This document shows positions 3,673 to 45,520 of a stretch of 64,000 nucleotides of DNA, in pieces. The notes under the pieces are model-generated. The model was given only the letters and a program-made list of their open reading frames with translations. It had not been told where the DNA came from and ran no database searches. The translations under genes and the position numbers were made by a program. This DNA is from an uncultured Pseudomonadales bacterium (GTDB lineage: Bacteria > Patescibacteriota > Microgenomatia > UBA1400 > PJMF01). Within the stretch, counting starts at the first letter, position 1. Each line of letters begins with the position of its first letter. The DNA lies in contig CAZBEW010000001.1 in the NCBI GenBank assembly GCA_964491115.1, forward strand, positions 62,936 through 126,935, in the 5' to 3' direction.

Positions 3673-4881
3673 CTATTCGTATCTCAAGGCTTCAATTGGC
3701 GAAAGATTGGCCGCTCTTTTAGCCGGCGCTACGCCAAAAATTAAGCCAACGGCTGTTGATACTCCAAGAGCTAAAAGGACCGCTGTTAAGGTAATTTTAG
3801 CTGGAAAAATTGATTGGATGGCCCAAGTGCCAAGCACGGCTAAAGCCAAACCCATCAAACCCCCAAAAATAGAAAGTATTGATGCTTCAATTAAAAATTG
3901 TACTAAAATTTGATTAGGCGTCGCTCCTAAAGCCTTGCGCAAACCAATTTCTCTAGTGCGTTCTGAAACTGACACCAACATAATATTCATGATGCCAATC
4001 CCACCCACTAATAAGGAAATGGCGGCAATACCACCCAATGCCACAGTTAACATGGACAAGATATTATTAATCGTGTCTAATAATTGAGATTGATCAAAAA
4101 CGCTAAAGTCGTCTTCGTCTAAATTTTTTTCTAATTCTTTTTCAATTGCTTCAATTGCTGGTGGAATCAAACTTGGATCTTTAATTTTTACTGAAAACTC
4201 AGTTAAGTCTTGACTTTCATAAATTCGACTAACTAATGAGTAAGGAGCATACACACGGTTGTCAAAACCAGCTCCAGAAAAACCTTGACCTTGTTCGGCT
4301 GCCACTCCTACCACAGTAAACATTTGATTACCAATGCGTAATTTTCGAGAAACTGGATCAACACGATCAAATAATTCTTCAGCCACTCCATGACCCAAAA
4401 CCACAACTCTATCTCCAGATCTTTCTTCACTTTCATTAAAATAACGCCCACTAGCCATATTGACGGTAATCACTTCTGGATAATTCGCTAAAGTACCTAA
4501 AATAGTGACTCTCATCGTATTATTTAAAAATTTAGCCTCATCAATTCCCGAAGAATTATAAGCAACATCGTCTACATATTCTCTAAGTCTTTTGACTCGC
4601 TCAATATCCCGTAGTGTAAATTTTTTTTCTGAGAGAAAGCGATCCATGCTTCCTTGACCCACGCCACCTTCACTGTCAATCATTTGGCCTATTGATACAA
4701 AAACTGTGTTGGCACCTAAACTCTCAAATTGTTCGGAAACATAAGCTTGCAAACCATTGCCCAAACCGGTCAACATCACTACTGAAAAAACTCCAATAAT
4801 AATGCCTAGGGTTGTTAAAAAAGTTCGGCCCTTATTCACTAACAGAGCCTTAGTGGCAACTTTAAAAGTATTTAATAGCAT
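3673..4881 (-). CDS. ABC transporter permease, MacB/FtsX-like
   Basis: 402 aa with an N-terminal TM, a large periplasmic loop and a C-terminal FtsX-like triple-TM region. It overlaps the upstream ATPase gene by 10 nt. Confidence 0.85.
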   Translation of the reverse strand: MLLNTFKVATKALLVNKGRTFLTTLGIIIGVFSVVMLTGLGNGLQAYVSEQFESLGANTVFVSIGQMIDSEGGVGQGSMDRFLSEKKFTLRDIERVKRLREYVDDVAYNSSGIDEAKFLNNTMRVTILGTLANYPEVITVNMASGRYFNESEERSGDRVVVLGHGVAEELFDRVDPVSRKLRIGNQMFTVVGVAAEQGQGFSGAGFDNRVYAPYSLVSRIYESQDLTEFSVKIKDPSLIPPAIEAIEKELEKNLDEDDFSVFDQSQLLDTINNILSMLTVALGGIAAISLLVGGIGIMNIMLVSVSERTREIGLRKALGATPNQILVQFLIEASILSIFGGLMGLALAVLGTWAIQSIFPAKITLTAVLLALGVSTAVGLIFGVAPAKRAANLSPIEALRYE

Positions 4882-5594
4882 TTTTTACCATCAGTTCGAC
4901 GATCTTTAACTATCTGACCGTCTTTAATAATAATTTCACGACTGGCAATTTTTGCTACACTTTGATCATGAGTAACCAAAATAATAGTTTTGCCTTCCTT
5001 ATTAAGTTGAATTAAGATTTTTTTTATTTCATCTCCAGCTTTTGAATCAAGATTACCGGTTGGTTCATCAGCAAAAATAATGCTCGGATTATTGACTAAA
5101 GCTCGAGCAATTGCCACTCGTTGTTGTTGTCCACCAGATAATTCTCCTGGCTTATTTGACAATCTATTACCTAAACCTAGTTTCTTAAGCATAATTGTCG
5201 CTCTTTCTTTTCTTTCTTCATCAGAAACTTTAGCATAAACCAGAGGTAATTCAACTTGTTCAAGAGCTGGAGTTTTGGCTAGTAAATTAAATTGCTGAAA
5301 AATAAAACCAATTTCTTTATTGCGCAAATGGGCTCGATCTACTTCATCATATTCGGTCACATTTTTTCCTCTTAGAAAAATTTCTCCATGTGTGGCTTGA
5401 GATAGCATGCTAGCTACTTGCAATAAAGTTGATTTGCCAGAGCCAGACGCCCCCATAATCACCACAAAATCTCCCTCACAAATGCTTAAGGATAATTTGT
5501 TTAAAGCTGGGATTTGTTGCTCACCTAAAGTATAAATTTTAGAAACTTCTTTCAACTCTAAGATGGCTGTGAGACTCTTTTTAGTTTTAGCCAT
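4872..5594 (-). CDS. ABC transporter ATP-binding protein (MacB/LolD-type)
   Basis: Walker [13 protein letters not shown] signature [15 protein letters not shown], Walker [13 protein letters not shown], and an H-loop. Confidence 0.9.
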
Positions 5595-5602
5595 AAGCAG
5601 GT

Positions 5603-6658
5603 CTAACTTTCAATAAGAATAATTTCGCCTTCTTCTAAACCCTCAATCACCTCGGCCATTTCATCATTTTCCAAACCTAGTTTAATTACTCTGTCTTCAG
5701 GAGTGACTTGATTTGGATTTTTAACCTTAACCATTGTTTGACCTTCTTGACTAAAGATGGCTTCTAAGGGAACTACTAAGACGTCACTTTTGCGGGCTAG
5801 CTCAATTTCGACATCTACATTCATGCCAATTCGATACTTATTCAAATCTTCAACTCCAGCCAGAGGTAACTCTAGTTGAAAAACTGTGCCAGTACTACCC
5901 GTCATGCTTTTAAAAGCAATGTAGTCTATTTGACTCATAATTTCTTCTTCTGCATAAGCATTAAAAATAATTTTAGCTGTTTGGCCTAGGGAAATTAATG
6001 GTAGATCAATTTCATCAATTTCGGCTTTAATTATTAAAGTTTTGGGATTAACTAATTCAAAAACGTCGCTGGGAGATAAAACCACTCCAGTCACAGGCGT
6101 CGGTGAGGATAGTAAAATGCCAGCAAAAGGGGCACTCATCACTCGACCATCAACAGCAACGCTTGTTAATTCTACATCTAGAACGCTATTATCCATGAGA
6201 TTTTGCTCTTTTTTTCGCGCTCGTTTTTCATCGTCATCTAAAACTTCGCCTTCGTCTTCCTTTAATTGAGCGTCCCAGTCTAATCGAGTATTTTCGTAGT
6301 AATTGAGGTTTTTCTCAAGATTTTTTTGTAAATCTCGAGTATCAATGGTGGCAATAGTTTGCCATTTATTTACCCAATCGCCTGTTTTTGCTCCCAAATA
6401 AACCAGCTTGCCACCACCCGCAAAATTTAAATTAACTCTTTCTTTAGCATCAAGATTTCCTGATAAAAGCATGGTTTGGCTGATATCTTGTCGAGTAAGC
6501 TGATGCTCGCTGAATTCAACTTCTTGCTTTTTAGCCCGATTCCAAAAAAATAATGCCACAATTATTAAAATTATTAATAGACCAAAGAATAATTTGCGTT
6601 TTTTACTTTTATCAGTGAAAAAGGTTTTAAACTTGTTTTTATTTTTGATATTTTTCAT
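5603..6658 (-). CDS. HlyD/MacA-family periplasmic adaptor (membrane fusion protein)
   Basis: N-terminal TM anchor, then a lipoyl/beta-barrel-like pattern (LSGNLDAKERVNLNFAGGGKL...). First gene of a three-gene exporter operon. Confidence 0.8.
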   Translation of the reverse strand: MKNIKNKNKFKTFFTDKSKKRKLFFGLLIILIIVALFFWNRAKKQEVEFSEHQLTRQDISQTMLLSGNLDAKERVNLNFAGGGKLVYLGAKTGDWVNKWQTIATIDTRDLQKNLEKNLNYYENTRLDWDAQLKEDEGEVLDDDEKRARKKEQNLMDNSVLDVELTSVAVDGRVMSAPFAGILLSSPTPVTGVVLSPSDVFELVNPKTLIIKAEIDEIDLPLISLGQTAKIIFNAYAEEEIMSQIDYIAFKSMTGSTGTVFQLELPLAGVEDLNKYRIGMNVDVEIELARKSDVLVVPLEAIFSQEGQTMVKVKNPNQVTPEDRVIKLGLENDEMAEVIEGLEEGEIILIES

Positions 6659-35412: not shown

Positions 35413-37623
35413 TTACCCTGTTTTTTGTTTAGCGTAGCGTTCTCGACTACTGCGAATTACTTTGTCTCGGTTTTGGTTTTTGCTACTGGCTAATCTTAGC
35501 GTGTAAGCTGGAAATGGCCGACTCAAAACATTATCAATAGAAATCTTGTTAATAATTTGGTATTTGCCCAAATTAACTAAATCATCTTGAGTATAGAGTC
35601 CCCCATATTCAGCTTGAAAATAATTGGCATCACCAGCTCCCATCACAAAACTAATAATATTGCCACAGTTACCAAAAATAGCGTTACGCACTTCTTCAGG
35701 AATTTGATCAATATATTGGTTGGCCAAAATTAAATTGAGTCGATATTTTCTCGCTTCAGATAAAATTTTGACAAAAGCATCGGTGGCAAAATTTTGAAAT
35801 TCATCGACATATAAATAAAAATCACGACGCTCTTCTTCATCGGTGTTGACTCTAGCCATCGCTGCCAATTGAATTTTAGTAATCATCATCGCGCCCAACA
35901 AGGTGGCATTGTCCTCACCCAAGCGCCCCTGAGACAAATTAATTAACAAAATTTTGCCCTCGTTCATTAATTTTTCAATGCTAAAAGATGATTGAGTGGT
36001 ATTAACCACATTGCGCACCAGCGGTGAAGAAACAAATTGACCAACCTTATTCAGAATTGAGGCAATTTGCTCTTGGCGTTGGCGATCACTCATTTTGTTA
36101 TATTCATTGACCCAAAAATTCTTTAAAATTGGATCATCGAGTTGGCTGACGACTTGCTCACGAAATTTTTCATTGGTTAATAAATCTAAAACATCTGACA
36201 GCTTGGCCTGCTCACTTTTTAATAAAGTCAGTAAACAATTGCGTAAAATATATTCAAGTCTTGGTCCCCAAGAATAACCATATAATTTCTTAAAAACTGA
36301 AATAATTCCAGAAGCAATCAGCTCCCGATGAGCTACATTTTCTCCCTCAAATAAATTAATCTGCACCGTGCGCTCTTGATCAGCTGGATCAAAGTAAATA
36401 ACATCATTAATCCTGTGCTTAGGAATATAATCCAATAAAGTTTCCACCAAATCCCCGTGGGGATCAATCACGCATAAACCCTTATTGTGTTTTAAGTCAT
36501 TAATGGCCATATTAGCCAGTAAAGTTGATTTACCAGTGCCAGTCTTACCAATGACATAAACATGACGACGTCGATCAGCATCAGTTAAGCCGTATTTACT
36601 TGTTTGATTTTTATAATTGGTTTCAGCAATAATATTAATCTTATTTTTGCTTTCTTCAGAACTGTTAATGTTGATGATTGGCAAATTGTCTGGAGCCTCA
36701 CCAAGAATTTTTTTACCCCAAGAAATATTATTAATATTACTCAGTTTTTGATTGGGAAAATGATAGATAGTTGCTAATTCATCGACACTCAGGGTCAGTG
36801 CTGGCACCAAGTTAAAGCTGCGATTTTTCATGCTTTTGATAAAGCAGTTTTTGAGAAAGAGACGTTTTGAGAAAAGTAATTCATTGCTTTCACTTCTAGA
36901 AGTGGCTTGATAAGCGGCAGCAATATTGCTCAATAAGAGTTGGCTTTTTTGACGATTGTCAGTGGCTACCGCAATTTTAAAAGCGGCTCTTAATTGCCTT
37001 TGTTCCAGTTTTTGCTTGATTAGTTGTTGCTGAGGGTGCTCGGCCAATTCTTCAGTTGATGGAGTTTGATCTATAGAAAAGAAAGGAAAATCAGTGGCTA
37101 ATAGCAATTGAATTAAAATCGTGTCCTCTCCCTCGTTTTTTGATAAAGTCGACATTAAAGTCGCTAAAGGATCAATATCTACAAAATCATGATGGGTTTT
37201 GAGTGGTAAATAATGACGATTTTTTAATCTAAAACTGGAAATAGCTAGTTGGCGATTTTCGAGTAAAAAATAATCAACTGGGTCAGAATCCATTTCTTCA
37301 ATGACGGCTTTGGGATAGCTGGCATGAATTGCTCCCTTAAAATAGGCTAAAAGTCGGACAGGCACGTTGATTAAAAAATGAATACTTTGCTCGCGCACTA
37401 GGATTTCAAAACTCAATCTTTCGTTTTTTCCCAATAATTTCTCAAACAAGTTGTTTTTAAGTTTTGGCAAAGTAGATAATAACTGCACTGCTGCCTCTGC
37501 AGTTTCTTCACCATCCTTGCTGGTTTTGATTTTGAGTAAGATATGATTTTTTGGCACGTTTTCAGTATAACAAATTATAATGAGCTTTTTTTCTCCAAAC
37601 GAAGTGCTCGATTTTTTTGCCAT
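35413..37623 (-). CDS. P-loop ATPase of the FtsK/HerA/VirD4 (type IV coupling protein-like) superfamily with a novel 350-aa N-terminal domain
   Basis: Walker A VIGKTGTGKSTLL, then VIDPHGD, Walker B FYLYVDEFQNF, and LILANQ. No TM helices. The ORF start overlaps the upstream membrane-protein gene by 49 nt. Confidence 0.6.
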   Translation of the reverse strand: MAKKSSTSFGEKKLIIICYTENVPKNHILLKIKTSKDGEETAEAAVQLLSTLPKLKNNLFEKLLGKNERLSFEILVREQSIHFLINVPVRLLAYFKGAIHASYPKAVIEEMDSDPVDYFLLENRQLAISSFRLKNRHYLPLKTHHDFVDIDPLATLMSTLSKNEGEDTILIQLLLATDFPFFSIDQTPSTEELAEHPQQQLIKQKLEQRQLRAAFKIAVATDNRQKSQLLLSNIAAAYQATSRSESNELLFSKRLFLKNCFIKSMKNRSFNLVPALTLSVDELATIYHFPNQKLSNINNISWGKKILGEAPDNLPIININSSEESKNKINIIAETNYKNQTSKYGLTDADRRRHVYVIGKTGTGKSTLLANMAINDLKHNKGLCVIDPHGDLVETLLDYIPKHRINDVIYFDPADQERTVQINLFEGENVAHRELIASGIISVFKKLYGYSWGPRLEYILRNCLLTLLKSEQAKLSDVLDLLTNEKFREQVVSQLDDPILKNFWVNEYNKMSDRQRQEQIASILNKVGQFVSSPLVRNVVNTTQSSFSIEKLMNEGKILLINLSQGRLGEDNATLLGAMMITKIQLAAMARVNTDEEERRDFYLYVDEFQNFATDAFVKILSEARKYRLNLILANQYIDQIPEEVRNAIFGNCGNIISFVMGAGDANYFQAEYGGLYTQDDLVNLGKYQIINKISIDNVLSRPFPAYTLRLASSKNQNRDKVIRSSRERYAKQKTG

Positions 37624-40600
37624 TTAGCTAGCAAAATTATTAACAAAGGCATTAAGAGCACCAGTCCCCCCAATTCTAAAAGTTGAGGCCAATAAACAAT
37701 ATAAATCTGACTATTATCGGTTGGTTTATTGATCACCCAGGCATTAGCCCAATTACTTAATTTATGATGTTCTAATTTTTGCCCATCTTGATAAGCGACC
37801 CAAGCAGGATCAAAAGCTTGAGATAGACTTAAGTATTTTGTTTGACAATTAGACGATAAATTAACTTGATAGAGCCAGAAAGCTCTTTTTTGCACAGTAA
37901 AATCACAAGCGCTAGGCTGTTCTTGAAAAACTTGAGCAGTAGCATTTCGCCATGATAAATTTTTCAAGAAATTATATGGCCAAAAAAATACTTCAAGTGA
38001 TTCAATCAGATCTTCATTTAGCTCTCGTCCATAAGAGTCAATTGAGAAATACAAGGTGTAAGCTTGATTAAAATCTTCGGTTGGTGGTAAAACTTGATAG
38101 TTGATTCCTTCGCTTAAATAAGTTTCGATGGGACTGCGACCCGAGCTATCTGATTGCACAGCAAAAACAGCGGGTAGACTAGCTAAATTCTTTGCCTCAA
38201 GCCTGATTAAATAGCCTAAATCGTGCTTTAAATTGGCCAAGGGGAAATGATCGCAGATGCTGGTGCCAACTGCCTGATAAAAAGTACCTTCAGCCCACTG
38301 TTCCTTAGCCACAGAACCTCCTTGTAATGGTCGACAATCAACTGGTTCAAAAACATTTTTCTCGCTCGTCATCAGATTACTTTGCAAAATTACTCGGGGA
38401 ATTTTCACTAATAATTGCTCAGTTCCTTGATGGGATTCTTGCTCAACCCGCTTAGTTTGCTCAACCTGCTCAACTTGCACATTAAACAAATTTAAATCAA
38501 AAAAAGCATAGTCAAAATAAGCAGTACTTTGCTCGCTACTTAAGGCTATCGTGTTAGAAACGCTGGTGTTGAGCAATAAATCAATTTGGCCACTGTTTTC
38601 CAGCTGAGCAATTAAGTGATTGTTAATATTTAGATAACAGGCCTCGCTAGCTAAACATAAATGAGCATCAAAAACAAAATCTTTTTCTAAAGTAAAATTT
38701 GTTATTTGGTCTTGCTCAATAATTTCTGGAGCTAACAAACTAAAATTGAGTTGAGCCTCACCATTTTCCACCAACCAAGTTAAACGAAAAGGCAAGTCTT
38801 TTTCACTTTTAAGTAAGTCTGCAAAGTGCAATTGAAAGTCGGTGCTGGGGCTAGCTTTCAAGCTAGTAAGATAAAAATAATGCTCATCTTCACTTAAAGA
38901 AAATTCAAGGTTTTTTTGCAGATGATTGCTAAATAATGCTGGAAAAGGATAAATAAAATCAGGATTAATAGAAGCGGCTCGCTGCTCAGTAAGCAGCTGA
39001 TCATCAATACTTAAATAATGAGACAAATCAGCAAAAGCCTGATCAAGCCAACTAAAGCGATAATTATTTATCACTCTAGGTAAATCATCATACAAGCTAA
39101 TGAATTCTTGACGAGCCTGGTGCGGCTGTTTTTTGACTTGATAAATGCTTAAAAAGTCATATTGTTCAAGCAAGTGAATATTAGTCGAACTTTGTAAAAA
39201 ATCACTTATAGCCTGGTAATTAAAGGGTTTTTTGGTATTACGATTAATAATTGATTCATCCAAGATTAAATAGTCAACATCGTATTGGGCGAAGACATTT
39301 TCTAGGGCAACAATATCTTGTCGATCGAGGGCCAACTGCAATTGCCAGTAATATCGTTCACTGGCTTCGCTCCAAACATCGAAAGCTCGATCTAAAATAG
39401 GCTGTTTAATACCATACCAAATAAATCCAGAGCCACGATAACCCCAATCATTCCATTGCCAACCATAAAAAGTATGCTGAGGTAAATTAGCGATGCGGCT
39501 GCTCGCTGGAGCTTGATCTTTAAAATAATCAAAAAGTTGAAAATAGGCATCGGGAATATTTATTCGTAAACGCGAATAGAAAAAATTACCAGTAAAACTT
39601 GGCCATGAATAATACAACAAGGACAGGAAAAACAAGCCAGACAAAATAAATTGCCAAACCCTCTTCTTTAATAAAGAAAAAAGCCAAGCCAAGCCAAAAG
39701 TCAGCAACAAACTATAAAAAAGACTGTAGGGCACAATCCATTTGGTGAAAGCTGAGCGAAATATTTGGCCAAACAAAGGCAAATATTGGCGTAAAAAATC
39801 ATAAAGAAAAGCCAAGGGTGGATTAGAACCTGCCAAAATAAAAACTGTAAACAAAAAAACCAGCAGAATGGCTAAATGACTGTGAGCTAAAAATGATTTA
39901 TTTTTTTTGCTGAAAATTAATAATCCCAAACCCAAAAGCAATAATAAAAAATAGAGCCAGCTTACAATAATAACGCCTGGTTGATGAAAGTGAGTTTTCC
40001 ACACATCCATCAGGTAAACACTATTTCCCCATTGATTAAAGTCTGTGTAATCAAGCCAAAAACCCTTGAGAGTGGCTAAATTAGCAAAACTACCAAATTG
40101 ATTATTTTTTAAGAAAGTTACCTCAGTAGACATCAGGTTAATTTTGGCATCGACGGTGGTGTTACTGGCAAAAATTGTAAAATAAATGACAGGTAATAGC
40201 CAAAAAGCATTGCTTAAAAAGACTATTAATAAAACTAGGGCAAATTTTTTCCAAGTAATTTTTTTCTTGAGTAGAAAAAAAACCATAATAATCAATAAAA
40301 TTAACAAATAAACAATGAAGACCGTTTGGACGTAAGCAAAAATGCTCCCCAAAAGAGAAAACAAGATAAACAATAATAAGTTTTTTTTAGTCGATTGTTC
40401 TAGATAGCTTAAAAAGTAATAAATTAACCATGGGAAAAAAGCAAAAAAAGCGGCAAAAGGCTCAAAAGTGACATAAAAATTTTGCACTGTGCCCAAGTTT
40501 AATAAATAAAAACTAGCACCAAGAACAGCCAATAGTCGACATTGCTTATTGTTTCTTAATAAATGGGCAAATAAACGATAAGCTCCTAAAACACCCAGTA

Positions 40601-40910
40601 ATAAAGACAAATAATTCCAGAAATATCTTAGCCACTCTTGTTTTAAGATTAAAGATAAGGGCCATAACAACAGCTGGCGAATTAAGTCTGCTCCATGAGC
40701 CATCCCTCCCAATAAACCCAAACCCTGATATTCTTGCCAAACAGCATTAAAAGTTCTTTCTAAATTAATCCCCAAATCAAGCTCAACGGGTAAATTATCC
40801 CAACCAATTAAATAAGTATCTGGGGTAAAGTTCTGATAACACAAAACAGTGACTAAGAAAAACAAAAGCAGCTGAGGCCAGATCTTTTTAACTAGGGAAA
40901 TAAATTTCAT
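37575..40910 (-). CDS. Giant 1111-aa polytopic membrane protein; possibly a GT-C-type glycosyltransferase (AftD/DUF3367-like)
   Basis: About 14 hydrophobic helices in the first roughly 470 aa, then a roughly 600-aa soluble domain with a final C-terminal TM (LGGLVLLMPLLIILLA). Family assignment is tentative. Confidence 0.55.
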   Translation of the reverse strand: MKFISLVKKIWPQLLLFFLVTVLCYQNFTPDTYLIGWDNLPVELDLGINLERTFNAVWQEYQGLGLLGGMAHGADLIRQLLLWPLSLILKQEWLRYFWNYLSLLLGVLGAYRLFAHLLRNNKQCRLLAVLGASFYLLNLGTVQNFYVTFEPFAAFFAFFPWLIYYFLSYLEQSTKKNLLLFILFSLLGSIFAYVQTVFIVYLLILLIIMVFFLLKKKITWKKFALVLLIVFLSNAFWLLPVIYFTIFASNTTVDAKINLMSTEVTFLKNNQFGSFANLATLKGFWLDYTDFNQWGNSVYLMDVWKTHFHQPGVIIVSWLYFLLLLLGLGLLIFSKKNKSFLAHSHLAILLVFLFTVFILAGSNPPLAFLYDFLRQYLPLFGQIFRSAFTKWIVPYSLFYSLLLTFGLAWLFSLLKKRVWQFILSGLFFLSLLYYSWPSFTGNFFYSRLRINIPDAYFQLFDYFKDQAPASSRIANLPQHTFYGWQWNDWGYRGSGFIWYGIKQPILDRAFDVWSEASERYYWQLQLALDRQDIVALENVFAQYDVDYLILDESIINRNTKKPFNYQAISDFLQSSTNIHLLEQYDFLSIYQVKKQPHQARQEFISLYDDLPRVINNYRFSWLDQAFADLSHYLSIDDQLLTEQRAASINPDFIYPFPALFSNHLQKNLEFSLSEDEHYFYLTSLKASPSTDFQLHFADLLKSEKDLPFRLTWLVENGEAQLNFSLLAPEIIEQDQITNFTLEKDFVFDAHLCLASEACYLNINNHLIAQLENSGQIDLLLNTSVSNTIALSSEQSTAYFDYAFFDLNLFNVQVEQVEQTKRVEQESHQGTEQLLVKIPRVILQSNLMTSEKNVFEPVDCRPLQGGSVAKEQWAEGTFYQAVGTSICDHFPLANLKHDLGYLIRLEAKNLASLPAVFAVQSDSSGRSPIETYLSEGINYQVLPPTEDFNQAYTLYFSIDSYGRELNEDLIESLEVFFWPYNFLKNLSWRNATAQVFQEQPSACDFTVQKRAFWLYQVNLSSNCQTKYLSLSQAFDPAWVAYQDGQKLEHHKLSNWANAWVINKPTDNSQIYIVYWPQLLELGGLVLLMPLLIILLAKWQKNRALRLEKKSSL

Positions 40911-40936: not shown

Positions 40937-42358
40937 TTAAGTGCCAGCTTGAGAATATATTGGCTTGTGCCAAAAATATCCTTTTTCTAGTCCGCTTGTT
41001 TTGACAATTTGTTCTTTAACAACTTGTTTTTTGACTGGCGTTATATGACTTAAATATTGTCCAGCAACCTCATTCCAGTCATGCGCTTTAGATAATTGAC
41101 GAGCAAAATTCCACATTTTTTGGCGTAAAACTGGATTTTGCCAGTTGTTTAAAAATACTTTGGCAAAAGAAGTGTAATTTAAGTCAAATAATAATTGATC
41201 AGTAGCGACACCATGCTTTTTAGCTAATTTTTGCACCTCATCTGTTCTTAAATTTTCGGCAAAAAAACTTGAGCAAATAAAAGACTTACGATATTGCAAA
41301 GCTAGAGCTAGAGCTCCAGAACTCGACATACGCGCACGATAAGGAAAAACTACTAAATCTGCCACTGCAAAAATCTTTGCCACCTCTTTTTCTGGCACGA
41401 AGCCAGTGTGAATAATATCTTGACTATTATTTTTGATTAAATTGTGCAGATTTTGATAAAAAGCACGCAAATGAGCCTGATTTTTTTGGGTAGGTGCCAC
41501 ATCTCCTGCTAATAATAATTTAGTATTCTTGCTTAACTTGCCAGATTTTTTTAAACGCAAAAAGTTCTTAATCAACCAATCAGTACCTTTGTACCAAGAA
41601 TGATAACCATAGGCTAAAACTAGTCGATCACTGGCTTGACAGCCCAAACTTTGCTTAAAATTAGCTTGTTGTTCTTGAGTTAAATTTTGATAACCATTAA
41701 TACCGTGAGGAATAATAGCTAATTTACGCTGAGGCACTAAGTTTTGTAATTTTTCAGCTAAAAATTGATCATGAACCAATATTTTTTGACTAGCCAAGCC
41801 CAAAATACTATAAAACAGACGCATCGCGCCATTAAAAAACAGAGTTTTTAGCGAACTAGCAGACAAGGCCACTTGACCAGACAAAGTAGCTAAATCTAAA
41901 ACTACTTGATGTAGCATGCTGTAGATTTTTTTGCCAAGCAAGCGTTGCCAAAGAAAGAAAAAAGGCAATAAAAAAGTAATAATTTCTTTGCCAAATAAAC
42001 TAAATTCAAATTGGAGGAGGATGTTTTTTGCCTGAGAAAAACGTTTAAATTGACTGTTTAGTTGAGTAAAAAGCTGAAGTGAGTTAACTGTATAGCTGGG
42101 AACAACTAAAATGTTCTTTTTGAGTAAATAAGCCTGGTTGTTTTCACCAACAATTTGCTCACACAGAACCACCACTCGTTGTTGATTGGGGAAATGTTGA
42201 AGTAATAATTGGCTATAACGAGCCACTGCGTTACGCTTGGCAATTTCCTCACCTTGCAGAGGAAAACTAGAAACTAGCAACAAAGTAGCTGAATCATTAA
42301 AGCGCTGGTAAGTCTTGTTACTTAATTTCATAATTTTTGGTAAAACAAAAACCACCAA
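40937..42358 (-). CDS. GT-B fold glycosyltransferase (GT4 / glycosyl-transferase group 1)
   Basis: The C-terminal half carries the GT1 signature pattern (LLLAGD...VPEKEVAKIFAVADLVVFPY...SSGALALALQYRKSFI). Confidence 0.7.
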   Translation of the reverse strand: MVVFVLPKIMKLSNKTYQRFNDSATLLLVSSFPLQGEEIAKRNAVARYSQLLLQHFPNQQRVVVLCEQIVGENNQAYLLKKNILVVPSYTVNSLQLFTQLNSQFKRFSQAKNILLQFEFSLFGKEIITFLLPFFFLWQRLLGKKIYSMLHQVVLDLATLSGQVALSASSLKTLFFNGAMRLFYSILGLASQKILVHDQFLAEKLQNLVPQRKLAIIPHGINGYQNLTQEQQANFKQSLGCQASDRLVLAYGYHSWYKGTDWLIKNFLRLKKSGKLSKNTKLLLAGDVAPTQKNQAHLRAFYQNLHNLIKNNSQDIIHTGFVPEKEVAKIFAVADLVVFPYRARMSSSGALALALQYRKSFICSSFFAENLRTDEVQKLAKKHGVATDQLLFDLNYTSFAKVFLNNWQNPVLRQKMWNFARQLSKAHDWNEVAGQYLSHITPVKKQVVKEQIVKTSGLEKGYFWHKPIYSQAGT

Positions 42359-42424
42359 TCCTAATTGATGAGCTTTGTTTTACCCGCGTCTCCTATGTTT
42401 CAAGGGGGACGCGGGTAAGGAGGA

Positions 42425-43342
42425 TTATGGGGCATAAGCCGTGAGGCTTTGCCCTGGAAAGGTGGCGGCCGCCCAGGCCTTTACCTGGGCTTCGGTCCAG
42501 CTGCTTGGCATTAGCCAAGCTTGGACCGTTTTATAAGCAATATTGTCCTGGGCATTCACCCAGAACACCAGCTGTTCATCCAACAGCGCGACAGTAGTCG
42601 CGCCTCGAGCGCCAATGCTGGCGCTGAAAGCTGAGCCATCCCAAACCCCGTGTACCGAAATAGACTGGGGTTGGTCAAAGTCGGCGTTGTCTGGCAAAAC
42701 CACCACTGGTGTGGCTTGTCCTAAGGGAAAAACAAAAATGTTTTTCCCGTAGTGGACAAAAATTGTCCAGTCGTAACCATTTGCTATCTGGTTCTGACGT
42801 TTTGCCGTCACGAACTCAGATGCGATCGGCGGCTTTGTAGTGGAAAAGTCCGCCATGTTCCAGTCTGCGGGATACACCCACAGGCTGGCCTCACGAACGG
42901 AGAGTTCCCACTCCACACCTGGGTCAAAGACCCAAATATGGTGCTCGGGATCGAGGGTCTGGCGACCCTCAATCAAAATGTTGCAACCAGCATAGTCTGC
43001 CAGCTGCTTCATTCCTGAAGACAACTTATAAAAGCCGTCTTCTTTCAGGTTGCTGAGGAATTCGATCCTCATTCCCTGATATCCGAGCGGACAATCCGCG
43101 ATTGCGACCACGGGTTCTTCCACCGGTACTTCAACCACTGGTTCTTCAACTACGGGTTCGACCACGGGTTCGACCACCGGGTCTTCGACCACGGGGTCGA
43201 CCAGCACCGGTTCCACGATAGGTACGGTTGTTTCCTTTACCTCTGTTGGAGGCAAAGGGGGTGCTTCTTGCTCAACCGGAGTCGAGCAAGAGGCGAGTAA
43301 ACTCGCCACTAACAACAAAACAAACAAAATTTTTGCGCGCAT
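42425..43342 (-). CDS. Lipoprotein with a (P-V-V-E)n linker and a C-terminal globular domain; the gene is strongly GC-rich relative to the genome
   Basis: Real start MRAKILFVLLLVASLLASCS (ATG 43342, SD AAGGAG 8 nt upstream). Lipobox L-A-S-C. Roughly 30 aa of PVVE-type repeats. The DNA is visibly GC-rich (GGCGGCCGCCCAGGCC...), unlike all neighbours. Confidence 0.7.
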   Translation of the reverse strand: MRAKILFVLLLVASLLASCSTPVEQEAPPLPPTEVKETTVPIVEPVLVDPVVEDPVVEPVVEPVVEEPVVEVPVEEPVVAIADCPLGYQGMRIEFLSNLKEDGFYKLSSGMKQLADYAGCNILIEGRQTLDPEHHIWVFDPGVEWELSVREASLWVYPADWNMADFSTTKPPIASEFVTAKRQNQIANGYDWTIFVHYGKNIFVFPLGQATPVVVLPDNADFDQPQSISVHGVWDGSAFSASIGARGATTVALLDEQLVFWVNAQDNIAYKTVQAWLMPSSWTEAQVKAWAAATFPGQSLTAYAP

Positions 43343-43708
43343 GATTTTTTCTCCTTTTTCTTGCGCAAATTCCACTAGACAGCAGTGGTCACCGACTCGT
43401 CCATTGCCCTGATGGCACGCTTGGACCAGCTTCTCTAACAACCACCTCAATCATGATTGCTAAAAAAGCTGGACCAAAATGCCTCGGGCATTATTTCCTC
43501 CTTGTTAAGGTGCGTCTCTTTTCGTAAGTGACTCAAAACTCCAGAAGCAATTTCTAGGTTTTAAGCTTTACTTAAGAGCTCCTTCTTCTACTCTTTCGAG
43601 TAGAGAATAATTTTTGACACAAGGGTTGGGGAAAAAAGATGGAGCTGTCAAAAACTATTCTCTAATCAAAAGATTCATTACTTATTTATTAATTTATTAA
43701 TATATATA

Positions 43709-43737
43709 AGTATATCAAATAAAGTCATTTTTGTCAA
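43709..43737 (-). promoter_or_regulatory. Sigma70 promoter (TTGACA-17-TATACT) reading toward the GC-rich lipoprotein gene
   Basis: Minus-strand sequence: ATGTCCCATAATA TTGACA aaaatgactttatttga TATACT. About 25 nt are shared with the promoter at 44658-44686. Confidence 0.55.
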
Positions 43738-43830
43738 TATTATGGGACATTACAATTATCTTTTTGCCAAATTTCTTAACTCAAGATCAAATAATCATTT
43801 AAGTTGAAAAGTCACCTTAGCTATTTTAAA

Positions 43831-43856
43831 AAGCCCTTCTGTCAAAGAAGGGCTTT
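43831..43856 (-). terminator. Rho-independent terminator downstream of the sortase-substrate gene (palindromic, potentially bidirectional)
   Basis: AAGCCCTTC-tgtcaaa-GAAGGGCTT, with a T-run on the minus strand (ttttaaaa follows). Confidence 0.55.
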
Positions 43857-43878: not shown

Positions 43879-44556
43879 TTATTTACTAAATTTCTTTGAT
43901 TTGCCTAAAGCAAAAGCACCTACGCCAGCTAAAGCCACCGCTTCTAAAATTAAAACTGTGCTTAAATCAAAACCAGTGTCTGGAGTGCTCTCAGTAATAA
44001 TGGCAGCACCATCGCTTTTTACACAAAAGCTAGCATAATCACTATCACTCACATCATCTGGGCGAGAATAAACTTTGGCCTTATTGGTAATACAAGTAGT
44101 ACCAGCTGGTAATTCGTTTTTACCCTTAAATCGAGCAGTAAAATAGACAGTAATTTCTTCATCAGGATCAACGGTATCAATAATAAATTTTAATTCATTG
44201 TCCTTAAATTCAACTGGGTATTCTTTGCCGTCTGCTCCTAAATAGAACATGTAATCAACTAAACGAGCGAAATCATCAATTAGACGAACCTTGTTGGTTT
44301 TAACATCGCTCACATTTTTAATGCGTAATCTAAATTTAACTTCTTGCTCAGGAGCAAAAGTGTAAGAGCTAGCAGCAATATTGTCCCAATATTCATTGGC
44401 TTTGGGATTAAAAATCTTTTTATCTAGGCTTAGATCGCCGTTTTCACAGACTTCACCACCGCCATAAACGGTGTGACAATCGCGAGCACTGGCAACATTA
44501 AAAGTCACTAAAAGAAAAGCTGTTGCTAATAAAAGGGAAGAAATTATTTTTTTCAT
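43879..44556 (-). CDS. Secreted surface protein with a C-terminal sortase-type sorting signal (TPDTG motif, TM, basic tail)
   Basis: Signal peptide MKKIISSLLLATAFLLVTFNVASA. The C-terminus reads ...ESTPDTGFDLSTVLILEAVALAGVGAFALGKSKKFSK (motif, hydrophobic helix, K-rich tail). It lies next to the sortase gene. Confidence 0.6.
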   Translation of the reverse strand: MKKIISSLLLATAFLLVTFNVASARDCHTVYGGGEVCENGDLSLDKKIFNPKANEYWDNIAASSYTFAPEQEVKFRLRIKNVSDVKTNKVRLIDDFARLVDYMFYLGADGKEYPVEFKDNELKFIIDTVDPDEEITVYFTARFKGKNELPAGTTCITNKAKVYSRPDDVSDSDYASFCVKSDGAAIITESTPDTGFDLSTVLILEAVALAGVGAFALGKSKKFSK

Positions 44557-44657: not shown

Positions 44658-44686
44658 ATTATATACTTATAATTAATTATTGTCAA
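44658..44686 (-). promoter_or_regulatory. Consensus sigma70 promoter (TTGACA-17-TATAAT) for the sortase-substrate gene
   Basis: Minus-strand sequence: AATATCCCATAATA TTGACA ataattaattataagta TATAAT. A perfect match to consensus in both hexamers and spacing. Confidence 0.65.
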
Positions 44687-44698
44687 TATTATGGGATA

Positions 44699-45520
44699 TT
44701 ATTCCTTAACAACAGGCACAGCGGTAATAAATAAACGCTGCCAACTGGTGCCCGGTGGCCAACAAGTTTGCAGTAATAAGATATTTTCCTCTTGAAGATT
44801 GTTAACAAAATCAATTTCTGTACTAGCGACTACATTTTGGGCAGTGACTTCGTAGACAAATTGTTCATCTCCCAAATGAAGAATGATTTGCTCGCCAATA
44901 GCTAAATCTTTGATTTGATAAAAAACCGCATTGTAAGCTTCGACATTCCATAAACCATTAGTAGAATGCCCAAAAATATAAATTAATTTTTCTTGACCAG
45001 GAAAAGCTGAGTTTTTGGCATGTGCCACACCAGATTCTAGTGCTGATTGATATTCTTCAGCATTATTAGGATCGATATTGGGATGAACCTGCTCGTAGAG
45101 TTCTAGGCTAGGTATTTCAATATAAAAAGGTAAGGTCGCGTAGTCGGGAGTTTCTATGAGCTTGGCTAAAGCGCTTTGACCGGCTTCTTGGCTGGAGGCC
45201 TCTTCTCTGGCAAAAATTGGCCAAGTCTTGTCGAGTTGCATTTTTGTCCAATCAAAAAAGGCAAAAGTATTCTCCTCTACTTCTTGTGGTAAATTTTTGA
45301 AAAATTCAGGAACAGCACTGATGAGCTGTTTTGATTGATTAAGTGTATTTGGTAATTTTTTAATTGCTTGAAAACTAAAAAATGGATTGCTTAAGATAAG
45401 CAGTAAAAAACTCAAAACAAAAGAAAAGATCGCCAACTTCTTGAGGCTTTTTGCTTTTTGTAAAATAAATTTAGCCGGGGATTTTTGATATAATCTCACC
45501 CTCGTCTTTTTATTTATCAT
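44699..45520 (-). CDS. Sortase (cysteine transpeptidase), N-terminally membrane-anchored
   Basis: TM at residues about 30-50. Catalytic His in LIYIFGHS, Cys in LLLQTCWPP (TLxTC-type), and Arg in SWQRLFI. Confidence 0.8.
   Translation of the reverse strand: MINKKTRVRLYQKSPAKFILQKAKSLKKLAIFSFVLSFLLLILSNPFFSFQAIKKLPNTLNQSKQLISAVPEFFKNLPQEVEENTFAFFDWTKMQLDKTWPIFAREEASSQEAGQSALAKLIETPDYATLPFYIEIPSLELYEQVHPNIDPNNAEEYQSALESGVAHAKNSAFPGQEKLIYIFGHSTNGLWNVEAYNAVFYQIKDLAIGEQIILHLGDEQFVYEVTAQNVVASTEIDFVNNLQEENILLLQTCWPPGTSWQRLFITAVPVVKE

Follow-up and report, generated by a model that had tools for sequence, protein, structure and literature searches.

The variable lipoproteins of Mycoplasma (Vlp, Vsa and Vsp) are encoded by multigene families that use site-specific inversion or slipped-strand tracts. 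Replacement-type flexible islands, such as those for O-antigen or glycotype and the central regions of fliC, usually hold many genes and are usually AT-richer than the genome. Long structured 5′ untranslated regions (UTRs) are known for ompA and S-layer mRNAs, and leader RNAs (EAR, antitermination) are known for polysaccharide operons. The vls cassettes of Borrelia have a G+C content of 49.1% versus 28.6% for the genome (PMC11499132), and in bacteria high recombination goes together with a raised GC content at third codon positions (GC3; Lassalle et al., 2015, PMC4450053). Here we compare with these systems a GC-rich lipoprotein gene and its 5′ leader in a stretch of 64,000 nt (the window; all positions below are counted from its first letter) of contig CAZBEW010000001.1, from an uncultured bacterium placed by GTDB in the Patescibacteriota. 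We find that the atypical composition is maintained at the locus and is not the signature of a donor, that the lipoprotein gene is a resident of its clade and not recently imported, and that the leader is a conserved, folded RNA that had not been described before.

When GC content was measured in 500-nt windows, the two adjoining ones at 42501-43500 had values of 0.524 and 0.504 and the remaining ones in the 64 kb ranged from 0.244 to 0.426. This island holds the coding sequence (CDS) of the lipoprotein (42425-43342, minus strand; ATG at 43342, stop at 42425), which has a GC content of 0.532 and values of 0.611/0.412/0.572 for the first, second and third codon positions. In the 55 other open reading frames (ORFs) of at least 100 aa, GC was 0.352 (sd 0.031) and GC3 was 0.283 (sd 0.047), which puts the CDS at z = 5.8 for GC and z = 6.1 for GC3. 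An earlier note on this DNA had described a GC-rich compositional island, and by both the sliding-window GC and the GC3 comparison the island is real and lies outside the range of the window. Third positions in the CDS are used almost evenly (A.22, C.28, G.29, T.21) and there is no strand skew in it (coding-strand G.277 vs C.255). The earlier note also placed a GC-rich leader upstream of the start codon; elevated GC does extend beyond the CDS to ~43540, and the promoter-distal 200 nt of the leader are GC-richer than the intergenic background. High GC is usual for structured RNA in an AT-rich genome and the raised GC of the leader fits this.

The product starts with MRAKILFVLLLVASLLAS-C, read from the sequence as a charged (basic) n-region, a hydrophobic h-region and a lipobox. 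The segment ASLLA[AG]C is kept among homologues and fits the lipobox pattern [LVI][ASTVI][GAS]C. The protein has the signals of an Lgt/Lsp substrate and is predicted to be lipid-modified. The lipobox is followed along the CDS by a linker rich in Thr, Pro, Val and Glu and by a C-terminal domain. The signal peptide, the lipobox and the direct repeats at 43105-43212 all agree with the earlier description of a lipoprotein with a (PVVE)n repeat linker. The parts are as follows.

43286..43342, minus strand: signal peptide and lipobox (MRAKILFVLLLVASLLAS-C), from the translation; also the 5′ recombination anchor
42428..43285, minus strand: mature lipoprotein, the hypervariable GC-rich part, made of a variable low-complexity linker and the C-terminal domain
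43105-43212, minus strand: (PVVE)n-type repeat linker, a direct-repeat family, from repeats and translation
42428-43108, minus strand: C-terminal domain of ~225 aa with a conserved fold

Neither Pfam nor NCBIfam has a family for this lipoprotein. A word-indexed search of 5.8e9 proteins yielded 20 relatives, and a profile (hidden Markov model) of the C-terminal domain matched 53 of 1.84e9 cluster representatives and no more. Those of the 53 that were examined come from small-genome contigs (0.4-0.8 Mb) of the same group. One relative is recorded as 'Patescibacteria group bacterium', and a locus identical to the nearest relative belongs to a 'Candidatus Paceibacterota' metagenome-assembled genome. 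A Patescibacteria-type locus, L030 (CAYSMC010000033.1; such handles denote related loci), is deposited as 'uncultured Pseudomonadales', an entry that probably reflects a mistake in binning or labelling.

The order of genes at the locus is sortase, a 225-aa DUF11/CLIPPER-like sortase substrate, a long intergenic region that contains the leader, the lipoprotein, a family-1 glycosyltransferase (GT1), a membrane protein of ~1100 aa and a VirD4/TraG-like ATPase. This order is kept in L001, L005, L006, L008, L011, L014 and L035. In L033 and in L036, a distinct small-genome lineage, the upstream neighbours are different and the downstream order (GT1, large membrane protein) is kept. The window is 90% identical to an 805-kb contig across 11.8 kb. 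Every relative that we found has a GC-rich lipoprotein gene in the same slot, even where synonymous divergence (dS) of the flanking genes is >2. Two modules occupy the slot. The A-type, present in the window, pairs a 300-aa lipoprotein with GT1, and the B-type pairs an unrelated lipoprotein of ~190 aa (a family of 19) with GT2. In the B-type loci L016, L019, L037 and L038 both the mature lipoprotein and GT1 are replaced, while the leader, the signal peptide and the downstream 1100-aa gene are the same. The A-type partner in the window is this gene.

40937..42331, minus strand: AT-rich GT1-family glycosyltransferase (Pfam Glyco_trans_1_4 and Glycos_transf_1), co-inherited with the A-type lipoprotein as a two-gene module

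All alleles of the lipoprotein gene are GC-rich, with GC3 of 0.41-0.67 versus ~0.2-0.3 in the flanks; the excess is smaller in L033 (lipoprotein GC3 0.33) and L036 (0.43 vs 0.28-0.37). The conserved signal-peptide codons are likewise GC3-rich (0.38-0.70, with ~20 codons each). In the swapped B block the lipoprotein alone is GC-rich, with GC3 of 0.51 vs 0.21 in L038 and 0.61 vs 0.18-0.22 in L037. The GC3 of the glycosyltransferase is 0.28 in the window and ~0.21 in L037 and L038. Because a GC-rich lipoprotein gene sits beside an AT-rich glycosyltransferase gene in the swapped block, the GC excess goes with whichever lipoprotein follows the leader and not with the ancestry of one gene or with co-travelling DNA. 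The excess spans the entire cistron, beginning in the leader and stopping at the first 3′ hairpin, and this is true of both lipoprotein families and of all lineages.

These data bear directly on whether the island was recently acquired from a GC-rich donor, with its composition now decaying slowly toward that of the host. GC and GC3 about 6 sd above the genes of the window, a shift at every codon position and sharp compositional borders are what such an import would leave. By contrast, the same slot is filled in all relatives, including lineages with flanking dS >2, and the glycosyltransferase gene that was co-transferred in the swapped B-type block is AT-rich. The protein searches (5.8e9 proteins and 1.84e9 representatives) gave no homologue outside this small-genome bacterial group. 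A phage reservoir was considered as a source and dropped, since the viral contigs of IMG/VR contained neither a relative of the domain nor the leader motif. No integrase or transposase is present among the neighbours (sortase, DUF11-like protein, glycosyltransferase, membrane protein), the nearest tRNA gene is >6 kb away and no direct repeats flank the lipoprotein locus. Alleles that are at least 1.1 dS apart all remain near GC3 0.6, and lineages with flanking dS >2 retain the excess; by a two-state relaxation estimate, a donor signature decaying under the AT pressure of this genome would have to start from an ancestor of impossibly high GC. Among the marks of a recent island we therefore found atypical composition, and did not find patchy presence, mobility hallmarks or an identifiable donor lineage. 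Recent import is hardly credible on this evidence, and the earlier view of the island as the clearest horizontal-transfer signature in the window does not hold in the sense intended. Gene flow does occur, as frequent homologous exchange of alleles inside the clade.

The second main finding concerns the region between the promoter and the lipoprotein gene. The earlier note suggested that the leader could be a functional RNA, and conservation and covariation among 13 related loci give this idea strong support. The leader folds at -122.5 kcal/mol compared with -81.1±5.3 in shuffles (z -7.87). We aligned 13 related leaders and curated their common structure into seven elements, P1 to P7, listed here from 5′ to 3′ of the transcript.

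43343..43700, minus strand: structured 5′ leader RNA, with a conserved core at 43371-43671
43658-43646/43619-43607, minus strand: P1, arms of a helix with a C-rich loop
43605-43598/43593-43586, minus strand: P2, arms of a helix with a GAAA loop
43584-43507, minus strand: P3, a multi-helix domain, from the curated structure
43513-43497, minus strand: invariant block GCACCUUAACAAGGAGG, 17 nt, between P3 and P4
43492-43478, minus strand: P4, a short hairpin, from the curated structure
43475-43453/43445-43423, minus strand: P5, arms of a long hairpin
43417-43405, minus strand: P6, with GNRA or UUCG loops, from the curated structure
43389-43371, minus strand: P7, the last hairpin before the ribosome-binding site, followed by AAUUU, from the curated structure

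The curated structure has 86 pairs and 94.4% of its cells are paired in the alignment. Two-sided changes occur in 27 of the 86 pairs, compared with 10.2±2.3 in column shuffles (0 of 500 shuffles reached the observed count) and with 5-11 when pairing partners were slid by 1-3 columns; the leaders stand for about seven lineages of one clade, and these counts include shared ancestry that the slid-partner control handles only partly. RNAalifold on its own recovers most of the curated helices. It also proposes a long-range pairing between arms of P4 and P6, which we set aside in favor of local hairpins because of the GNRA/UUCG loops and the lineage-specific stems. The block GCACCUUAACAAGGAGG does not vary among the 13 leaders of the alignment; P3 is closed by its 5′ half, and AACAAGGAGG is predicted to be unpaired. 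The base of P5 is also invariant in sequence. Upstream of P1, UAGAGA can extend this helix (P1x) by pairing with the 5′ arm of P2, which excludes P2. Both alternatives are ~95% kept, but no more than one compensatory change speaks for P1x. The sequence comparisons show that the structure of the leader is under selection.

Two smaller features of the leader had been described in the earlier note. A perfect 11-bp inverted repeat was one of these, and it has one central mismatch: the reverse complement of TGGACCAGCTT is AAGCTGGTCCA and not AAGCTGGACCA, and perfect inverted repeats in the leader reach 9 bp at most. The mismatched arms nonetheless form the base of an RNA helix of 21-23 bp that includes G-U pairs. 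The other, a second small hairpin, is present as TGCC-TCG-GGCA and reaches 6 bp in the RNA (AAUGCC/GGCAUU). We also considered whether the P5 arm pairs over a long distance with AGCUGGACC, which lies close to where the CDS ends (inverted repeat I12), and rejected this pairing as it is not conserved in other alleles.

The leader has a constant position between the conserved promoter and the lipoprotein ATG, on the same strand, whether the lipoprotein is A-type or B-type. When public metagenomes and one genome per species were scanned with the motif GCACCTTAACAAGGAG-N(15-45)-CCAGCT, 17 loci were obtained; 13 are true, all of them upstream of a lipoprotein of the clade, and 4 are chance matches. 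A sequence profile of the leader finds a single copy in the window and also finds the leaders of L035 and L038. The profile has no match in L033, L036 or L037, where only the promoter and a short GCWCUUUAACAGGUGAG block look related. At the gathering threshold, Rfam 15 gives only 4 tRNAs in the window and no family for the leader, and the best leader matches at E <=10 are microRNA models with ~20 bits. We found no relevant described equivalent for Patescibacteria in the literature.

Upstream of the leader is a sigma-70-type promoter.

43709..43746, minus strand: sigma-70-type promoter with upstream motif CCCATAATA, -35 TTGACA at 43737-43732, a 17-nt spacer and extended -10 TGATATACT at 43717-43709

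In a consensus scan this promoter (TTGACA-17-TATACT plus the TG of an extended -10) has 11 of 12 consensus matches. It is almost invariant across relatives (ATCCCATAATATTGACAAWAATGACTTTATTTGATATACT), including the upstream CCCATAATA, and it is still recognisable in the distant L033, L037 and L038. With the promoter at 43737..43709, transcription is predicted to start near 43700 and to produce a leader of ~330-360 nt. The promoter and long structured leader of the earlier note are both supported by this; its distance of ~330 nt becomes ~360 nt when counted from the predicted start. An exact 16-mer, CCCATAATATTGACAA, occurs twice on the minus strand, at 43731-43746 in the leader promoter and at 44680-44695 in the promoter (-10 TATAAT) of the neighbouring 225-aa surface-protein gene. 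This duplication points to an upstream promoter element or regulator site that the two adjacent surface genes have in common.

At the 3′ end of the leader, ~30 nt separate P7 from the ATG, and AAUUU(U) comes after the hairpin. Unmistakable intrinsic terminators take the place of the P7 region in L014 and L035, before the ribosome-binding site. These terminators raise the idea of an independent small RNA gene, or of a leader-peptide attenuator, in which the conserved RNA ends at P7 or the terminator and the lipoprotein is expressed by read-through or from a weak promoter of its own. An AUG that follows an invariant AAGGAGG in 5 of 7 lineages, and could open an upstream ORF (uORF) of 14-23 codons into P4 and P5, speaks for the same idea. 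Against it, the RNA was never found apart from a lipoprotein gene and the ~30 nt between P7 and the lipoprotein ATG hold no promoter-like site. We also set aside the leader-peptide uORF MPEAFWSSFFSNHD, keeping it only as a minor rival, because its AUG is missing in L014 and L026 and its stop and frame shift while the nucleotides and pairings are kept. We consider a separate small RNA or attenuator unlikely.

Two further observations were made on the leader region. The poly-C tract in the loop of P1 (window ~43625-43635) differs by one C (7 vs 8) between L011 and L012/L013, which are otherwise near-identical strains, and its length varies between lineages; a slipped-strand tract in the leader RNA is possible. 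The spacer between the upstream gene and the leader holds several hundred nt of extra, GC-richer sequence in L014 (~4925-5620, on both sides of the promoter) and in L035 (~4370-4660). A stretch in the L014 insertion looked tRNA-like by eye and was dropped, as ARAGORN finds no tRNA there.

A second structured element follows the stop codon of the lipoprotein gene.

42423-42417, minus strand: CCUCCUU, directly after the stop codon
42416-42408/42390-42382, minus strand: hairpin H1, ACCCGCGUC/GACGCGGGU (inverted repeats I6 and I3 belong to the H1/H2 element)
42384-42364/42359-42339, minus strand: hairpin H2, which ends 7 nt before the glycosyltransferase ATG

This intercistronic element (42339..42423, minus strand) is 97% identical to those of L001 and L006. 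Both hairpins show compensatory changes between lineages, from CCCGCG/CGCGGG to CCCACG/CGUGGG and from GUAAAACAAAG/UUUGUUUUAC to GUAAAGCAAAG/UUUGCUUUAC. The layout of CCUCC, H1 and H2 recurs with other sequence after the unrelated B-type lipoprotein (L016, L019, L038). There is no U-tract after H1 or H2. The element appears to be an intercistronic processing or stability element. The CCUCCUU resembles an anti-Shine-Dalgarno sequence and is complementary both to the invariant AAGGAGG of the leader and to the Shine-Dalgarno sequence of the gene itself.

The third main finding is that the lipoprotein CDS is far more variable than the sequence on either side. When the window was compared with its closest relatives in 100-nt windows, identity was 0.90-1.00 in the flanking genes, 0.92-1.00 in the leader and 0.67-0.80 in the CDS, with the shift at the CDS ends. 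Overall, the lipoprotein CDS is 74% identical to that of L001, compared with 94% for the glycosyltransferase and 99% for the leader core. Estimates of synonymous (dS) and non-synonymous (dN) divergence by the Nei-Gojobori method, window versus L001, were as follows.

Lipoprotein: dS 1.10, dN 0.20, dN/dS 0.18
Four flanking genes: dS 0.20-0.32, dN 0.006-0.046

Over the comparisons made, lipoprotein dS was 1.1-1.27 versus 0.20-0.36 for the four flanking genes. These data show that the CDS is hypervariable at both synonymous and non-synonymous sites while it is under purifying selection. Since dS and dN are both raised ~5-fold under purifying selection, positive selection alone is insufficient to explain the divergence.

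The 5′ breakpoint was at the same place in all three close-strain comparisons that we ran: identity of 94-99% stops 58-66 nt into the CDS, at the codon for the lipobox Cys. L016 and L020 are 99.2% identical over 1740 nt, to 62 nt into the CDS (lipobox Cys), and cannot be aligned beyond this. L008 and L020 are 98.6% identical up to the lipobox, have an unalignable linker and N-terminal half, and are again 96% identical from the middle of the CDS on. Between L019 and L008 similarity is lost from the lipobox to the start of the 1100-aa gene. The 3′ crossover is within the CDS or, in the A/B swap, past the glycosyltransferase. The proteins are mosaics too; P0009 equals P0008 at residues 1-150 and P0010 at residues 150-302. 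These results show that the alleles are mosaics exchanged by homologous recombination within the clade. With its conserved flanks, its divergent or non-homologous content in close strains and its surface function, the locus has the properties of a replacement-type variable surface locus.

A breakpoint at the lipobox in each of the three comparisons, together with the ~5-fold rise of dS along with dN, could also be produced by programmed diversification, that is, by targeted hypermutation or by gene conversion from silent cassettes, with the conserved leader, lipobox region and 3′ hairpin as cis sites, as in Borrelia vlsE or Mycoplasma vsa. The GC content of ~50% against ~30% recalls the Borrelia vls cassettes, 49.1% vs 28.6% as quoted above (PMC11499132). 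By contrast, searches with the CDS (blastn, tblastn) found no silent copy, paralogue or template-like repeat in the 64-kb window, the flanks of related loci (up to 7 kb) hold no silent copy either, and every homologue with checked context sits in the expression slot. No recombinase or reverse transcriptase was found among the neighbours, and the GC skew of 0.52 in vls has no counterpart here (G.277, C.255). Differences are spread across the whole CDS and are not A-specific. The hallmarks of a diversity-generating retroelement are likewise missing, as there is no repeat of the CDS in the window and no reverse transcriptase among the neighbours scanned (not all of the 56 ORFs were scanned), and we dropped both this and silent cassettes as candidates. 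Programmed diversification is very improbable. Little more can be said for a variant in which a dedicated process targets any lipoprotein in the slot for GC-biased conversion or mutagenesis and uses the leader, lipobox junction and 3′ hairpin as its cis elements; this seems quite improbable on the sequences at hand. If it were true, one dedicated process would jointly yield the 5-fold synonymous divergence, the near-uniform third positions and the cistron-limited GC in two unrelated families clade-wide. An idea that the leader and hairpin motifs are DNA-uptake sequences was rejected because they are not over-represented in the window.

On balance we lean toward reading the island as an expression and variation unit that resides throughout the clade and serves a cell-surface lipoprotein. 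In this unit, a strong conserved sigma-70-type promoter would drive a structured leader of ~330-360 nt, followed by the lipoprotein cistron, two hairpins, the AT-rich glycosyltransferase and the rest of a surface-glycosylation operon. The leader is likely to act in cis on its own transcript. A possible mechanism, which we offer tentatively, is that it serves as a 5′ stabiliser and read-through gate, with P7 placed just before the ribosome-binding site. The 3′ hairpins would set the limits of the lipoprotein segment, or stabilise it, with respect to the genes downstream, and leader and hairpins together would set expression of the lipoprotein apart from that of those genes. The lipoprotein is probably a substrate or partner of the paired glycosyltransferase. 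As an exposed and probably glycosylated protein it would be under diversifying or frequency-dependent selection that keeps old allelic lineages, and this in turn would account for the high dS. The GC content would then be a steady state that results from a fixation bias specific to this cistron.

Two candidates for such a bias are GC-biased gene conversion at a recombination hot spot and selection on mRNA composition; we regard the two as about equally plausible and neither as probable. Selection on mRNA composition fits the cistron-exact borders and does not fit the very high dS. For gene conversion, an alternative to the expression and variation unit can be formulated in which GC is a by-product: GC-biased heteroduplex repair between divergent alleles would raise the GC of the most recombined gene, and the leader and hairpins would be ordinary expression signals and homology anchors. 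The locus is a hot spot of recombination and its alleles are mosaics, composition is shifted at each codon position with third positions near-uniform, and allele GC3 varies from 0.33 to 0.67, as allele-specific histories predict. Two unrelated families in the slot share high GC, whereas the non-homologous glycosyltransferases, which are unable to form heteroduplex, do not. In many bacteria recombining genes are GC3-richer (PMC4450053). However, published effects amount to a few percent and do not approach a doubling of GC3. No enrichment extends into the 5′ end of the glycosyltransferase gene, a site of 3′ crossovers, and the conserved signal-peptide codons are GC3-rich too. Polarised substitution counts (weak to strong versus strong to weak), meant to tell decay from a steady state, were roughly balanced in the lipoprotein gene, with a control gene biased by the method. 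The by-product explanation is, in our opinion, possible and somewhat doubtful.

Several points weigh against the expression and variation unit as we describe it. The near-invariant 17-mer and the base of P5 suggest a specific ligand or protein partner, and a plain stabiliser may be too simple. P7 with AAUUU(U) makes a weak terminator and a clear terminator is present in two lineages only. Transcription start, co-transcription of leader and gene, and termination or processing are all inferred from sequence. With regard to the GC content, strong selection on synonymous composition fits poorly with a dS this high; gene conversion has little substrate in the conserved signal-peptide codons, yet these are GC3-rich; and the balance of polarised substitutions in the lipoprotein has to be read alongside the parsimony bias of the control gene. 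The search for silent copies covers the window and flanks up to 7 kb.

Other features of the neighbourhood were noted. The 225-aa DUF11/CLIPPER-like protein has a C-terminal sortase signal (..TPDTG, a hydrophobic stretch and KSKK) and its gene adjoins the sortase gene (43879-44556 and 44699-45520, minus strand). A clean bidirectional terminator hairpin at 43830-43856 follows the gene of the 225-aa protein. Downstream in the same orientation, 35413-40910 (minus strand) encodes the 1111-aa multi-pass membrane protein and a VirD4/TrwB-like coupling ATPase, both kept in relatives; these are unusual partners for a glycosylation/sortase locus. The membrane protein has no sequence match in Pfam, NCBIfam or PDB, and a likeness to AftD-type GT-C enzymes was considered and dropped as unsupported by these searches. 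L037, a locus of 35% GC, has a second GC-rich gene by the slot, a small ORF of 97 aa (4166-4459; GC 0.565, GC3 0.55) that closely precedes the leader promoter. Elsewhere in the window, the palindrome TTGGCCAA occurs 12 times, compared with 2.3±1.5 expected from dinucleotide-preserving shuffles (0 of 100 reach 12), with sites that include 1141, 3167, 7523, 10814, 15393, 19338, 28241, 35720, 38233, 39765, 45217 and 52438.

The locus offers a natural case in which to ask what holds local GC off its mutational equilibrium, since one cistron has about twice the genomic GC3, clade-wide and in two unrelated families, beside co-inherited AT-rich genes in tiny genomes. The leader is of interest as a large structured RNA that is well supported by covariation, has no counterpart in Rfam and stands first in a surface-glycosylation operon of a poorly explored phylum. 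The most variable exposed protein of these presumably host-attached bacteria, with its paired glycosyltransferase, is a candidate determinant of host or phage specificity. Current concepts are not overturned by these results and the mechanism is inferred.

The described systems each share part of this organization. As in the variable lipoproteins of Mycoplasma, conservation extends over the promoter, the 5′ UTR and the signal peptide with its lipobox, and the mature region that comes next is variable and rich in repeats. Unlike in those systems, the slot is single-copy, there is no recombinase gene in its vicinity and no paralogues were detected in the 64-kb window. With replacement-type islands the locus shares a fixed position, conserved flanks, divergent content in close strains, glycosyltransferases swapped together with a surface component, atypical composition and old diversity. 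It differs from them in being a two-gene module in which only the lipoprotein gene is deviant, and deviant toward GC. The UTRs of envelope mRNAs and the leaders of polysaccharide operons are similar in role and not in sequence: a strong promoter is followed by a long folded leader, the first cistron is preceded by a hairpin or terminator, and an intercistronic hairpin comes after this cistron. By contrast with those leaders, the RNA described here has no Rfam match (EAR included), and its ~330 nt, at least seven helices and invariant 17-nt block exceed what a simple stabiliser would need; its role is predicted. Compared with bacterial GC-biased gene conversion, the GC3 of 0.57 vs 0.28 is far above the reported genome-wide effects, and a causal link is only a candidate. 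The vls system of Borrelia has a contiguous array of silent cassettes, a GC skew of 0.52 with G-runs and unidirectional intragenomic conversion, whereas this locus has no silent copies in 64 kb, no skew, apparent exchange between strains and a long structured leader. Even so, Borrelia vlsE can be regarded as the nearest analogue in phenotype: in both cases a surface lipoprotein in an AT-rich genome combines a conserved 5′ end with a variable part of ~50% G+C that changes by segmental recombination.

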